A stretch of DNA of 64,000 bases from Candidatus Heimdallarchaeum endolithica (GCA_021513715.1 CP084167.1:2528001-2592000); one strand, 5' to 3'; numbered from the stretch's first letter, positions 16,253 through 32,306 are shown. The notes: generated by a model from the sequence alone, not told the origin. Program-made: numbers and translations.

Positions 16253-17262
16253 TGTATACTCAACTCACATTGGTAACAAATAAATAGAAGTGGGTTACGT
16301 GGGTAAGTGATATATTATGAACAAAAACGAACGTAACCTGGAGAAACTAAGAAAGATTGTGGTTAAAAAAGCTTTGGAAGGAGAGAAGATAAAAGAGGTA
16401 GCTCACAAGTATATGGTGAGTAGGAAGTTTGTGTATAAGTGGTTGAAGAGGTTCAGAGAGAACCCTGAAGGAGTATGGTGGAAAGATAGATCTTCCAGAC
16501 CAAAAACTATACACAGGAAAGTAGATGAGGAGTTAAAAGAGAGGATAAGGGAGTTAAGAATAAAACAAGGAATGAATGTGGAGAAGATAGCTTATTTGTT
16601 GAAGAGAGAAGGAAAAGCACTCTCTCAGACGACAGTGACGAAAGTAATAAAAGAGTTAGGTCTTCCTTTATGGGTTAATAGAAAAAAGAGGAAAAGACCT
16701 CGATACAAGAGTTTTGAACGTCAAAAACCTAACGAACTCTGGCAAATAGATGTGAAAGGACCATTCTGGGTAGAAGAACAGGGACAACATCTCCACCTCA
16801 TAACCTTGATAGACGACCACTCACGATTCTGTCTGGGAGCTGAATTCCACCCTTTTGCACCAAAAAAAGAGCAGATAATAAGTTTGCTAGAGGAAGCAAT
16901 AAAAGAGTACGGTTACCCCGAGTCTATACTTACTGACAATGGAGCACTCTTCTCTTCCGTTAGAGGAGGAACAAGTACCTTCTCCCGTTGGTGTCAAACA
17001 GAAGGAATAAAGCACATCAGAGCTAGAGTTTTTCACCCTGAAACATGTGGAAAAGTAGAAAGACTACATGGGACAATCATCCGTGAGATGGAAAGATTAG
17101 GTCTAAAATACTGCAACCCCGACCTCTCCTACTATCGCTCTTACTACAATTTTAGTCGTCCTCACCAATCTCTTAACTTCCTCACCCCAGGAGAAAGATT
17201 TATGAATCACCCCTATGTTTCTCTAGTACCCAAAAGTGTAACCCAAGTCTATTGAGTAAACA
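16253..17262 (+). mobile_element. IS481-family insertion sequence (1010 bp)
   Basis: TGT...ACA ends with imperfect 26-bp TIRs (19/26 matches); flanked by an exact 16-bp direct repeat TAAAAAACTGACCAAC at 16237-16252 and 17263-17278. Confidence 0.92.
16317..17255 (+). CDS. IS481-family DDE transposase
   Basis: N-terminal HTH; WQIDVK, DDHSR, LTDNG, GKVER, YNFSRPHQSL. Confidence 0.93.
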   Translation: MNKNERNLEKLRKIVVKKALEGEKIKEVAHKYMVSRKFVYKWLKRFRENPEGVWWKDRSSRPKTIHRKVDEELKERIRELRIKQGMNVEKIAYLLKREGKALSQTTVTKVIKELGLPLWVNRKKRKRPRYKSFERQKPNELWQIDVKGPFWVEEQGQHLHLITLIDDHSRFCLGAEFHPFAPKKEQIISLLEEAIKEYGYPESILTDNGALFSSVRGGTSTFSRWCQTEGIKHIRARVFHPETCGKVERLHGTIIREMERLGLKYCNPDLSYYRSYYNFSRPHQSLNFLTPGERFMNHPYVSLVPKSVTQVY

Positions 17263-17332
17263 TAAAAAACTGACCAACCACTAAATTTAAAACAGTCTTT
17301 ATGGCGAGGATTTAACCAGAGAAACAGAATGG

Positions 17333-17617
17333 ATGAACACCATGATTACAATAAAACGAGAAATAAAGTCACCTTTCAGTAATTACGGTTTTGAGAAAAC
17401 CAGTAGCCAATATCAGGTGATTTTAACTTATTTAGAAACCAATGATGCAGAAAAGAGAAGAATCGGTTACGCACTTTCCATTCCGAAATTCGATGAATTA
17501 CCAGATGGGCTTAAAGAAATAGTACGCCAAAAATGGTTTTCAGAACAAAAAAAAGAAAACTTTGAAAAAGAATTTTGCGATTTATGTGACAAAGTTTTTC
17601 GTTTTCAACCAGAGTAG
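17333..17617 (+). CDS. Small hypothetical protein
   Basis: 94-aa ORF with host-like composition upstream of pelota. Confidence 0.5.
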   Translation: MNTMITIKREIKSPFSNYGFEKTSSQYQVILTYLETNDAEKRRIGYALSIPKFDELPDGLKEIVRQKWFSEQKKENFEKEFCDLCDKVFRFQPE

Positions 17618-17676
17618 TTTGTATTCAAAGAACTTATATTTTTCCTCTTAGTTTTTTGATAAGGTGTGAAAAATAC

Positions 17677-29756: not shown

Positions 29757-29925
29757 TATCTTTCACTAATTTCTGTGTGTGGGATTTAAAAAAATGTTTG
29801 TAGGTATATGAATCTGTAAATTGAGCTTCAGAGTAATTTAATTCTTGTAGGGGTTTAGTTGCTATTTTTTGCCTACAGCAATTGTTTTATGTTTATAAAG
29901 AAAATGTGACTTTTGGTGGTAGTTT

Positions 29926-31287
29926 ATGTCAAATCATGTTTTCAGAAAAAATAGAGCTGTAAGCCCTGTTATTGCTACCGTTTTAATTATTGCTCTTGTA
30001 ATTGCTGCTGTTGCAGTTGTATGGTTAGTTGTGATGCTGATGCTTCAACTCAGCGACAGCTTACTAGCTGGTTATCCTAGTTTTAGTGATGAAAATCAAA
30101 ACTACTTTTATGATCAAATCACAATTCTAATTACTAATTCTGGTACAAAAAACATTGTTCCTAAAGCTCTTCTTATTCAAAACAGTGATTCTGGTATTGA
30201 TTTAAGATGGAATTTTACTGTTCAATCTCGTACGCTTATTCCAGGAACTGGAGATGAATTTCATGCTCAAGCTGTAGAAAATGTTACTGAATTGGTTGGC
30301 GGGATAAATGTAGACCTTTATGTTGCTTACACTTTAGACTCAAGTACAGGTTCAGAAAAGGAGTGGACATTAACTTTAGGATTTTATCTTCCAATACTTG
30401 TTAATGCAAGTGCTGACATTTTTCAACCTCTCCAATATAGAACTTCTACAGATGATTCTTCCACTAGTAGAGGTACTTTTCCTGGTCCTGGTTATTCTCC
30501 TCACAAATGGTTCATTTTAGGTCGTTTTATCCCAGGAACAAGTTCAAGTTCTGCTAATATGCAAGTTGATTACATAGAAGCTAGTGGTTATGCTAATGAG
30601 ACTACATACCGCCCCTATTTGAATTCTGGAGATACTTTCAACACTAACATTGGCACAGAAACGAATAATAGTTTTGTTGCTTATTTAGATGTTGGTAACC
30701 AAATAGGTTTGATAGATTTTATTGGTGGTTCTAGCTCAAGATTTGATCGAGGAGATACATTGAATTGGGATTCAAGAGGAATTGTTTATGCTGTAACATG
30801 CATCAATAATCCAAAATCGACTTCTGCAACTGTTGGTATTGCATGCCAATCTGACGACGATTTTTATCTGTGGGTAAATGGAGAGCTTGTTATTGACAGC
30901 TTTGCCGATTCTTTAAGTTGGAATGAATGGAGTGCTCTAAAAAACATCACCTTAACTCCAGGATTAAATTATATTCTAGTAAAAAGTGGGGATAGAGGAG
31001 GAAATTGGGATGTTAATCTAATTCTTGTTGATATTGGTGATGATGATCTTGAAACATTTACATCTGTTTGGCCAACCAGCTCGCCATTGTTAACTAAAAT
31101 GAATTCAAAAATAATGAGAACAGAAAATACTTGTGAAACTGAAGAGCAAAAAAGTATAGATAACATTTACCAAAATAAAATAAAATTAACTAATGAATAT
31201 CGATGTGAAACTTATACTATTATCGGTACAATAAAACAACCTTTCGTTTATTCATTGATAAGAAGAGATGTACTATTTTATTTCTGA
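29926..31287 (+). CDS. Archaeal type IV pilin/archaellin-signal protein with extracellular beta-rich (PA14-like) domain
   Basis: Class III signal RA|VSPVIATVLII; SDDDFYLWVNG...L.PG.N.IL.K. Confidence 0.75.
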   Translation: MSNHVFRKNRAVSPVIATVLIIALVIAAVAVVWLVVMLMLQLSDSLLAGYPSFSDENQNYFYDQITILITNSGTKNIVPKALLIQNSDSGIDLRWNFTVQSRTLIPGTGDEFHAQAVENVTELVGGINVDLYVAYTLDSSTGSEKEWTLTLGFYLPILVNASADIFQPLQYRTSTDDSSTSRGTFPGPGYSPHKWFILGRFIPGTSSSSANMQVDYIEASGYANETTYRPYLNSGDTFNTNIGTETNNSFVAYLDVGNQIGLIDFIGGSSSRFDRGDTLNWDSRGIVYAVTCINNPKSTSATVGIACQSDDDFYLWVNGELVIDSFADSLSWNEWSALKNITLTPGLNYILVKSGDRGGNWDVNLILVDIGDDDLETFTSVWPTSSPLLTKMNSKIMRTENTCETEEQKSIDNIYQNKIKLTNEYRCETYTIIGTIKQPFVYSLIRRDVLFYF

Positions 31288-31306
31288 TTCTTTATTTTTT
31301 TTTAAA

Positions 31307-32306
31307 GCATGTCCAAAAATTAATTTTTATTAATGTGGGGGTTTATGTCGGAAGTATGAATTTCTTTCAGATCATAGACCCCCACAAAGCAAGAGAATTC
31401 ATAATCATTAATGAACCTTTCCTTAAGAAACTGGTGAAAGAGGAACCGAGAGAAAGCAAGAGAGGGAGAAAGAGAATAGCAGAAAGATGGGTGATACTGG
31501 CTTTAGCAATCATTGCTAGAATAGAAGGGATAGCTTGGAGGAAGTTAGAGGAAAAGTTGTCTTTATGCGATTTTTTGATAGAAGAGGGGTGGATGAAGAA
31601 GATTCCTTCTAAATCTACTTTTCATGCAGTGTGGAGAGCGACAGAAAGTAAAATCTTAGAGCAGTGGATAATAGATTTAGGTAGGGAAATAGTGAGGAAA
31701 AAAGGCTTGAAAGCTATGGCAGTGGATAGTTCAGGGTTTAAAATCCGTCAAGCTTCTGTTTGGCGTTTTCTCAAATGGTCAAGAGGGACACTAAAGAAAA
31801 CCTCTAAACTTTTCTGGAAGATACACCTTATAGTTGGTTTACCCTCTCGAGCTATAGTCTCTCTCGCTCATTCTGCTAGTAACACTCACGATAGTAAAGT
31901 CTTCGGTTTACTCTGGCAGAAACTTCCTTCTGCACTCTTGAGACCTTTCTTGCGATTTTATGGAGACTGTGCCTACTGGACAGAAAATATCGTGGGACTT
32001 CTTAGCCAACATTCCTTTTTCCCTGTTATTCCCCCAAAAAGTAATGCTCGTTATCCCTCTCCTCCTCCCCTCGGACCAATAGTTCAAGCTCATCGTCTCT
32101 ACCCTGGTCTGTATCGTCGTAATCATCATCCCGAGTATCGTAGTAGTATTGAACACGTCTTTGGTCTCCTTAAACTCTCTCTTCCCCCAATCCTTGATCG
32201 TTTACCCTCCACCATCCTCTCTACCTTGTACAGTTCTCTTCTCTGTTACAACTACCTTTTACTCCTTCGGACCGTTTAGTAGGTGAAAAAGAATTTTTGG
32301 ACATGC
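31307..32306 (+). mobile_element. IS5/IS4-superfamily insertion sequence (1000 bp)
   Basis: Perfect 15-bp TIR GCATGTCCAAAAATT; 9-bp direct repeat TTTTTTAAA at 31298-31306 and 32307-32315. Confidence 0.88.
31335..32279 (+). CDS. DDE transposase (IS5-like)
   Basis: P..STFH, AVDSSG, WKIHL, HD, GDCAY, RSSIEHVFG.LK. Start may be ATG 31357. Confidence 0.85.
   Translation: MGVYVGSMNFFQIIDPHKAREFIIINEPFLKKLVKEEPRESKRGRKRIAERWVILALAIIARIEGIAWRKLEEKLSLCDFLIEEGWMKKIPSKSTFHAVWRATESKILEQWIIDLGREIVRKKGLKAMAVDSSGFKIRQASVWRFLKWSRGTLKKTSKLFWKIHLIVGLPSRAIVSLAHSASNTHDSKVFGLLWQKLPSALLRPFLRFYGDCAYWTENIVGLLSQHSFFPVIPPKSNARYPSPPPLGPIVQAHRLYPGLYRRNHHPEYRSSIEHVFGLLKLSLPPILDRLPSTILSTLYSSLLCYNYLLLLRTV

Follow-up and report, generated by a model that had tools for sequence, protein, structure and literature searches.

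What causes the transposase genes of three unrelated insertion sequence (IS) families in one archaeal genome to begin rich in G and end rich in C on the same strand? The question is raised by a 64,000-nucleotide stretch of Candidatus Heimdallarchaeum endolithica DNA (GCA_021513715.1, CP084167.1:2528001-2592000, or C1:2528001-2592000 in our numbering), which we call the window and in which an IS481-family, an IS6-like and an IS5-like element are found; positions are counted from its first nucleotide. The original prediction, made from 60-nt blocks counted by hand, was that all three share a mirror-image flip from G to C imposed by the host. On recounting, the six blocks proved exact: G19/C3 at 16381-16440 and G6/C20 at 17101-17160 in IS481, G20/C5 at 20161-20220 and G8/C17 at 20521-20580 in IS6, and G23/C5 at 31441-31500 and G4/C25 at 32161-32220 in the IS5-like element. 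Analysis of the complete archaeal genome (a single contig of 3,326,783 bp, 31% G+C) and of related genomes showed a nucleotide-level, IS-specific and lineage-dependent gradient from purine to pyrimidine that has dragged the amino-acid composition of the transposases along with it.

We scored the flip as the GC skew of the first 40% of an open reading frame (ORF) minus the GC skew of its last 40%, for 2444 ORFs called across the whole genome. Among the 1766 host ORFs of 220 aa or more, the flip averages 0.00 with a standard deviation (SD) of 0.139; a single one reaches 0.5 and none reaches 0.6. On this scale the transposase genes score 0.80 (IS5-like), 0.63 (IS481) and 0.50 (IS6), and almost all of the top ~45 ORFs ranked by flip are IS transposases. 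The IS flip is far above chance and is not a common property of host genes, which are one-sided throughout, as had been supposed, with G exceeding C in both parts (mean +0.14, then +0.12). For the purine flip the host SD is 0.096. Resolved in 200-nt windows, the GC skew runs from +0.55 to -0.46 along IS481, from +0.45 to -0.33 along IS6 and from +0.53 to -0.46 along the IS5-like element. When ORFs were clustered into multi-copy families, the non-mobile paralogues (solute-binding proteins, ParA, PD-(D/E)XK and beta-helix proteins) had flips of about 0.

The elements, their genes and their skewed parts are as follows.

16253-17262 (+): element of the IS481 family, 1010 bp, with 25 full-length copies genome-wide; bounds from blastn of the copies; imperfect terminal inverted repeats TGTATACTCAA / TGTTTACTCAA
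16317-17255 (+): IS481 transposase gene, 312 aa, the single ORF of the element
16253-16780 (+): G/purine-rich half of the IS481 element on the top strand, decile skews +0.24 to +0.74
16781-17262 (+): C-rich half of the IS481 element on the top strand, deciles down to -0.40, A>T persisting
19911-20673 (+): IS6-like element of 763 bp, with 92% identity to the reference copy; 9 copies at full length in the genome; inverted repeats GGTGGTGTCTAGTTT / GGTAGTGTCTAGTTT
19967-20665 (+): IS6-like transposase gene, 232 aa; best NCBIfam match IS6, weak Pfam matches to rve/rve_3
31305-32309 (+): IS5-like element of 1005 bp; of the 33 full-length copies in the genome, 22 retain an intact frame; 17-bp inverted repeats AAGCATGTCCAAAAATT
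31335-32279 (+): IS5-like DDE transposase gene, 314 aa, Pfam DDE_Tnp_1
31305-31800 (+): purine-rich (GA-tract) half of the IS5-like element, GA-rich runs of up to 19 nt
31801-32309 (+): pyrimidine-rich (CT-tract) half of the IS5-like element, several CCTCC-type runs

The IS481 transposase satisfies its family model (NCBIfam NF033577, 232.3 bits against a cut-off of 224) and contains the Pfam domains HTH_28/HTH_32 and rve, and the element itself has the size and layout of that family, with 1010 bp, one ORF and imperfect inverted repeats. The other two are named by likeness because their scores fall below the cut-offs of the family models. The best match of the second is the IS6 model at 48 bits (cut-off 125), with Pfam rve below cut-off as well. 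Members of the IS6 family are typically 0.7-0.9 kb long with a single ORF and inverted repeats starting with GG; the copies here, at 762-763 bp with a 232-aa ORF and inverted repeats GGTGGTGTCTAGTTT, are of that size and layout. The third transposase matches Pfam DDE_Tnp_1 at 43.9 bits (cut-off 23), and NCBIfam NF033579 (IS5), its best match there, at 70.9 bits, below the cut-off of 140. Within each of the three full-length sets the copies are 86-100% identical.

How closely does the skew resemble a mirror? The description fits the IS5-like element fully, and it alone: its cumulative curves of GC, AT and purine skew reach their maxima together at 0.48-0.50 of its length and end at a net of about 0, the GC skew of its gene goes from +0.43 in the first 40% to -0.37 in the last 40%, and its fourfold degenerate (4-fold) sites in the last two quintiles are A9 C23 G3 T34. 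In IS481 only G and C exchange places, with the cumulative GC skew at its maximum at 0.52 of the element, while A exceeds T throughout; here the gene goes from +0.49 to -0.14 overall and from +0.60 to -0.88 at 4-fold sites, the last two quintiles of which are A20 C15 G1 T19. The IS6-like element switches at about 20220-20400 on the top strand (0.40-0.63 of its length), and purine skew at its 4-fold sites flips as well (Fisher p = 7e-6).

The convergence between unrelated families that had been predicted was borne out well beyond the window. Clustering of multi-copy ORFs revealed further carriers, namely an ISH3-like IS (381 aa) and three to four TnpB families (485-500, 445-448 and 504 aa), with GC flips of 0.25-0.31 and purine flips of 0.31-0.45, so that 7-8 unrelated IS/TnpB families of this genome share the purine-to-pyrimidine gradient. 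In these additional families the switch lies at 0.65-0.78 of the length, and the mirror image does not extend to them. The flip rises with the number of full-length copies, from about 0.3 in the TnpB and ISH3-like families (2-14 copies) to 0.50 in IS6 (9), 0.63 in IS481 (25) and 0.80 in the IS5-like family (33). The G+C content of the IS is 0.36-0.42 against 0.31 for the host and is higher in every family; it also exceeds that of the flanks in all lineages compared. For the pair of circular Heimdallarchaeum genomes (3.32 and 3.08 Mbp), 11 transposase/integrase families with up to 27 copies are described (PMC8813620).

The sole complete IS200/IS605 element (C1:923909-925479, minus strand; Y1 tnpA and a 403-aa tnpB), present in one copy, has a flip of 0. 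It is evenly purine-rich, 4-fold sites included, and the multi-copy elements with TnpB only all flip. A 110-bp miniature inverted-repeat transposable element (MITE) with the inverted repeats TAGTACTTCCG of the 1220-bp ISH3-like IS occurs in 19 copies in both orientations, one of them adjoining the TnpB element at C1:1138723-1140498. It is the sole MITE type found, and its 110 bp are insufficient for a non-coding test of the flip.

Is the gradient a property of the proteins or of the DNA? Several observations place it at the nucleotide level. Pooled over seven families, 4-fold sites have the composition A.48, C.10, G.17, T.25 in the first 40% and A.19, C.24, G.06, T.50 in the last 40%, whereas those of the host are A.41, C.08, G.065, T.45 in every quintile, with no gradient. 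When the second part is complemented the two become near mirror images, and the strand read inward from either end has, at these sites, A.50, C.07, G.21, T.22: G is about three times the host value and A is raised, whereas T is lowered. The pooled inward ratios are 2.3 for A/T and 2.9 for G/C, with IS481 alone at an A/T of 0.94. Fisher tests of the 4-fold flip in the individual families give values of 2e-4 to 3e-8, except for IS481, where G/C alone flips. The ratio of AGR to CGN arginine codons shifts from 104:17 over the first 40% to 32:61 over the last 40%, compared with 74% AGR in the host, and non-coding leaders have a purine skew of +0.23 against -0.05 for trailers (p = 1e-5).

Part of the silent-site composition in this genome follows its surroundings. 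In host genes the silent-site purine skew tracks that of codon positions 1+2 (slope 0.59, r 0.28), and host synonymous choices tend to lengthen runs of purines or of pyrimidines, with a mean z of 0.8 relative to synonymous shuffles; together these constitute a general context effect of the genome. After the host-wide effect of positions 1+2 is subtracted, all 14 IS halves still deviate toward the flip (14/14), with silent-site C in 3' halves giving deviations down to -5 SD. The flip thus survives at synonymous sites, in 4-fold positions, arginine codons and context-corrected residuals alike, and it is present in other multi-copy IS of the genome; either could have been its undoing. The protein has moved with it: the C-terminal 40% of the IS5-like transposase contains 20% L, 12% P, 10% S, 2% K and 2% E, while the same part of its homologues has 7-12% K and 3-8% P. 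Since silent sites and amino acids shift in the same direction, a nucleotide-level force is indicated.

Homologues in related genomes allow the part played by the host to be distinguished from that of the transposase family. For the IS5-like transposase these are:

H. aukensis, 97% identity: flip +0.83
H. aukensis, older relic, 64% identity: flip +0.91
Other Heimdallarchaeaceae, metagenome-assembled genomes, 45-49% identity: flip +0.19 to +0.46, at silent sites too
Equally AT-rich sister family, 44-46% identity: flip 0
Thorarchaeota, 10 loci in several genera, 21-26% identity: flip -0.45 to -0.59, at silent sites too

IS481 homologues flip by +0.66 in H. aukensis and by +0.30 in one Heimdallarchaeaceae genome (64% identity), have flips of about 0 in ~20 other Asgard genomes, and are reversed at two Thorarchaeota-family loci. 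In these comparisons, the strength and sign of the skew follow host lineage and not transposase family. The opposite polarity of the Thorarchaeota elements (IS5-like and two IS481-like) holds at 4-fold sites as well, the first part being pyrimidine-rich and the last part purine-rich, and in those genomes the TnpB-like genes are flat. TnpB genes elsewhere have purine flips of only -0.24 to +0.17 (~24 class-wide and 16 in Thorarchaeota-family genomes), and among bacterial controls IS30, IS5 and IS1 of E. coli have no positive flip. The skew is common to unrelated families within a lineage, yet does not affect every element of that lineage. A host-imposed force, as first proposed, is therefore supported in part, in so far as the skew tracks host lineage in the IS5-like and IS481 families, but not for the single-copy IS200/IS605 element, the TnpB of the sister genus or the TnpBs of Thorarchaeota, all of which lack the flip.

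Three other loci in the window deserve mention. The IS6-like element lies directly upstream of a TtuA/PP-loop tRNA-thiolation ORF (20439-21668, +) whose listed GTG start falls within the right end of the element and is probably spurious. Between the IS6-like and IS5-like elements, an island of 55% G+C is due to an archaeal signal recognition particle RNA (22484-22791, +; Rfam RF01857, 114.8 bits). A host ORF with a weak DUF4129 match (50534-51295, +) has a flip of -0.54, among the most negative in the genome; this flip looks amino-acid driven because it is missing at 4-fold sites.

Several specific mechanisms were tried and rejected. Folding was compared with block dinucleotide shuffles, which preserve composition: whole elements fold better than their shuffles (z -2 to -5), an excess that is due to the terminal inverted repeats, and interiors without these repeats give z +0.7 for IS5-like, +0.6 for IS6 and -3.4 for IS481. 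The specific long-range fold-back that had been suggested was not sustained in the IS5-like and IS6 elements, where the excess is gone once the terminal inverted repeats are cut off. An antisense gene overlapping the 3' half was discarded when no consistent or conserved open frame was found there, as was an enrichment of oligo-T terminators in the pyrimidine half, where T5+ runs are at the host level. The search for a motif shared by the inward halves returned only generic homopurine and homopyrimidine 5-mers, and runs are barely longer than those of the host in the synonymous-shuffle test (mean z ~1.4 against 0.8), which does not favour selection for long tracts. A Rho-like reader of C-rich RNA was dismissed, the genome having no Rho RNA-binding domain; the reviews consulted on archaeal termination name U-rich signals only.

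Mutation in place was also rejected as the source of the skew. Singletons reflect GC-to-AT decay, with copy-private G>A and C>T changes at similar per-site rates and with T>G and A>C rare and unbiased, and dead copies (89-95% identity, broken frames) have lost G+C but kept the skew ratio. The skew was therefore built in the active lineage and not in resident copies, and recent variants among the copies have no skew-making spectrum. Recombination between copies was assessed with the pairwise homoplasy index (PHI) test, which gave p < 0.002 for TnpB, p = 0.036 for IS6, p = 0.09 for IS5-like and no signal for IS481. In the TnpB family of 485-500 aa (12 full-length copies, PHI p < 0.002), 39% of informative site pairs are incompatible. 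Nine private variants of one IS5-like copy are clustered at positions 699-743, in what looks like a short conversion tract.

Among the explanations considered we rank first, though tentatively and at less than even chances, one in which repair or conversion synthesis, proceeding inward from the two ends of the element, would have left the skew behind as a strand-biased imprint; this cause is one that we infer. The bias would arise by strand-asymmetric mutation or fixation tied to DNA synthesis that is peculiar to mobile multi-copy DNA, whether donor-site gap repair after excision or TnpB cutting, replicative transposition or ectopic gene conversion. Such synthesis would begin at both element ends and run inward, so that the newly made strand would be the top one in the left part and the bottom one in the right part, and either host repair synthesis would favour G or purine in the new strand or mismatch correction would favour the strand bearing G. 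Active IS lineages would gain a mirror skew together with higher G+C, and host genes, never so copied, would not. A skew sign change marks the meeting point of converging syntheses, as at chromosomal termini, and the geometry of the elements agrees with such a meeting point. An imprint of this kind would explain why the skew is confined to mobile DNA in multiple copies and rises roughly with copy number; it would also account for the raised G+C with G gained at the expense of T on the inward strand, and for independence from transposase chemistry combined with dependence on the host. The lineage-specific sign would follow because the polarity and strength of the imprint would be set by host repair enzymes, and an IS G+C above that of the host fits since G would be added. 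We also count in its favour that copies recombine, as indicated by the PHI results for TnpB and IS6, and that the bacterial GRINS described below offer a precedent.

A number of points weigh against this explanation. In young intact copies T>G is not in excess in the left part, nor is A>C in the right part. A skew of purine against pyrimidine needs transversions or G insertion, unlike the classic G+T skew of replication, and to exceed ordinary chromosomal mutation the events that leave the imprint must be both frequent and highly error-prone. Under one universal chemistry the reversed sign in Thorarchaeota is not readily accounted for; a multi-copy 410-aa TnpB in the sister genus and all tested Thorarchaeota TnpBs are without a flip; and the IS481 copies give no recombination signal. 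The switch is mid-element only in IS5-like, IS481 and, roughly, IS6, and the imprint leaves unexplained both its off-centre position in TnpB and the missing spectrum in recent variants.

Could the skew instead be selected? A cis-acting design acting on single strands, of mRNA or DNA, is possible but on balance unlikely. Halves made only of purines and only of pyrimidines do not fold on themselves and can pair with each other, and the design would close the transcript or exposed strand end to end or, with reading inward from either terminus, give rise to stable purine-RNA:DNA hybrids (R-loops), thereby controlling transposase translation, RNA stability, end synapsis or the priming of replicative transposition. 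The native order indeed doubles the long-range pairs predicted in the IS5-like fold (137 against 60 in whole-sequence shuffles), and the GA-tracts on the left, which include GGAGG-like runs, can pair in many registers with the CT-tracts and their CCTCC-like runs on the right; pairing that arises from composition alone may well occur. Either sign gives equal self-complementarity, which would account for Heimdallarchaeum and Thorarchaeota together; the inward A/T and G/C ratios are similar, as for a force acting on purine versus pyrimidine; and selection on transposition rate can suffice to remodel a protein. Yet the 137-pair fold is no more stable than the shuffles, and pairing beyond composition is confined to IS481. 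Separating purines from pyrimidines does not raise the total folding energy but lowers it, runs exceed those of the host only slightly in length, and an arbitrary sign would not be common to 7-8 families of one host. A stronger version, in which the mirror skew is an adaptive "compositional inverted repeat" read with a host factor that has one strand preference in Heimdallarchaeum and another in Thorarchaeota, and hybrids or fold-back prime or license copying or gate transposase translation, seems to us decidedly improbable.

Transcription from both sides is a further candidate, with sense RNA started at the left end and antisense RNA at the right end, or with read-in from both neighbours, such that strand bias or purine loading of each transcript leaves each inward half purine-rich. 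Purine excess on the RNA-like strand is, by Szybalski's rule, a signature of transcription direction, and there are many reports of antisense RNAs directed at archaeal transposase genes. In this genome the coding strands of host genes are purine-rich (mean +0.13 at codon positions 1+2), and the pattern is symmetric about the element ends, as read-in would give. We consider this improbable: host 4-fold sites have neither a purine excess nor a gradient (purine skew about -0.05, GC skew -0.04 to -0.13), and there is therefore no transcription-linked silent-site pressure in this host, the skews of the IS amount to 3-5 times the host-gene values, the Thorarchaeota sign would demand outward transcription, and neither raised T5+ runs in the 3' halves nor a conserved antisense ORF was found. 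That the flip merely reflects protein architecture in an AT-rich genome, with a basic K/R/E-rich N-terminus and a hydrophobic catalytic C-terminus, or else import or chance, is very improbable and is largely refuted by the synonymous-site and homologue controls. Purine-ending two-fold codons do drop along the genes as pyrimidine-ending ones increase, the host correlation between silent sites and positions 1+2 points the same way, and the higher G+C of the IS could speak for import. However, IS5-like homologues of 40-46% identity in the equally AT-rich sister family have no flip and no amino-acid gradient, ~40 TnpBs elsewhere have purine flips below those found here, 4-fold sites, arginine codon families and leaders also flip with residuals uniformly in that direction, and the skew switch lies off domain borders. 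The flip persists in relatives at 47% identity and is therefore no remnant of recent import.

Strand skews are usually read as footprints of chromosome replication or transcription. Here they are confined to mobile elements of 1-2 kb, are several-fold above those of host genes, change sign inside one gene, have opposite polarity in two Asgard lineages, and rewrite up to 60% of a catalytic domain into codons of the Leu/Pro/Ser type. Asgard archaea are the closest prokaryotic relatives of eukaryotes and are genetically not yet tractable. If the imprint of inward synthesis is the correct explanation, these elements would be a natural recorder of the repair of transposon breaks in Asgard archaea; if selection is, they would reveal a new cis-acting requirement common to DDE and TnpB elements, and a compositional inverted repeat would amount to a cis requirement for transposition in these archaea that is new and holds regardless of family. 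Either way, a simple sequence statistic separates active IS from host genes in these genomes, and the composition of IS proteins can be driven by nucleotide-level forces.

How does this pattern compare with known strand asymmetries? With replication-type asymmetry, as in chromosomal GC skew or in linear replicons copied from both ends, it shares a sign change within the unit, a G-rich strand where synthesis runs 5' to 3' toward the meeting point, and an effect on both silent sites and amino acids. It differs in scale, with 0.8-1.8 kb in place of a replicon and no origin or terminus involved, and in strength, with silent-site G/C ratios of 6-8 in IS5-like and IS481 that are far above those of cellular chromosomes; A rather than T accompanies G, so that the keto excess is not found, and the sign is reversed in Thorarchaeota. 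With Szybalski purine loading it shares an excess of A+G on the strand read 5' to 3' from each end, extending into codon choice; it departs from such loading in that host genes have no purine excess at 4-fold sites and the second half of the same mRNA is pyrimidine-loaded.

[quoted passage not shown] To count as GRINS, repeats must exceed 500 bp in length and 80% in identity, and their mean absolute GC and TA skews must be above 0.15 (2021, PNAS, PMC8256042); these skews are most marked at third positions, alter the amino-acid content, appear with either sign on a single strand and are linked with gene conversion, and transposases are their commonest carriers in four of five bacterial phyla and make up 77% of cyanobacterial GRINS (PMC8256042). 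Most set G+T against C+A, the correlation between their GC and TA skews is positive in the majority and negative in a minority, and their cause is unexplained (PMC8256042). Applying that test with mean absolute skews in 150-nt windows at steps of 30, we obtained GC/TA values of 0.33/0.19 for IS5-like, 0.28/0.24 for IS481 and 0.25/0.23 for IS6, all above the threshold; the 0.15 cut-offs are lax in this genome, where 23% of host genes pass them and 1.8% reach a mean absolute GC skew of 0.30. GC and TA skews are correlated at r = -0.71 to -0.86 in the three IS, which is the minority sign among GRINS. The elements are thus alike in being repeated DNA of more than 500 bp and more than 80% identity, in intense GC and TA skews of both signs per strand, in a skew that is strongest at third codon positions and in a shifted amino-acid content. 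They are unlike in that the skew is of purine against pyrimidine and not of G+T against C+A, that each element has one ordered sign change, mirror-like about its ends, that one polarity prevails across the families of one host and the opposite in another Asgard lineage, and that the hosts are archaea, outside the survey of that paper (PMC8256042). The three IS fall within the operational definition of GRINS in repetition, skew threshold, correlation and third positions. Should the imprint of inward synthesis be correct, they would offer a handle on the mechanism of GRINS, of which the Heimdallarchaeum skew is a mirror-arranged case of the purine/pyrimidine type.

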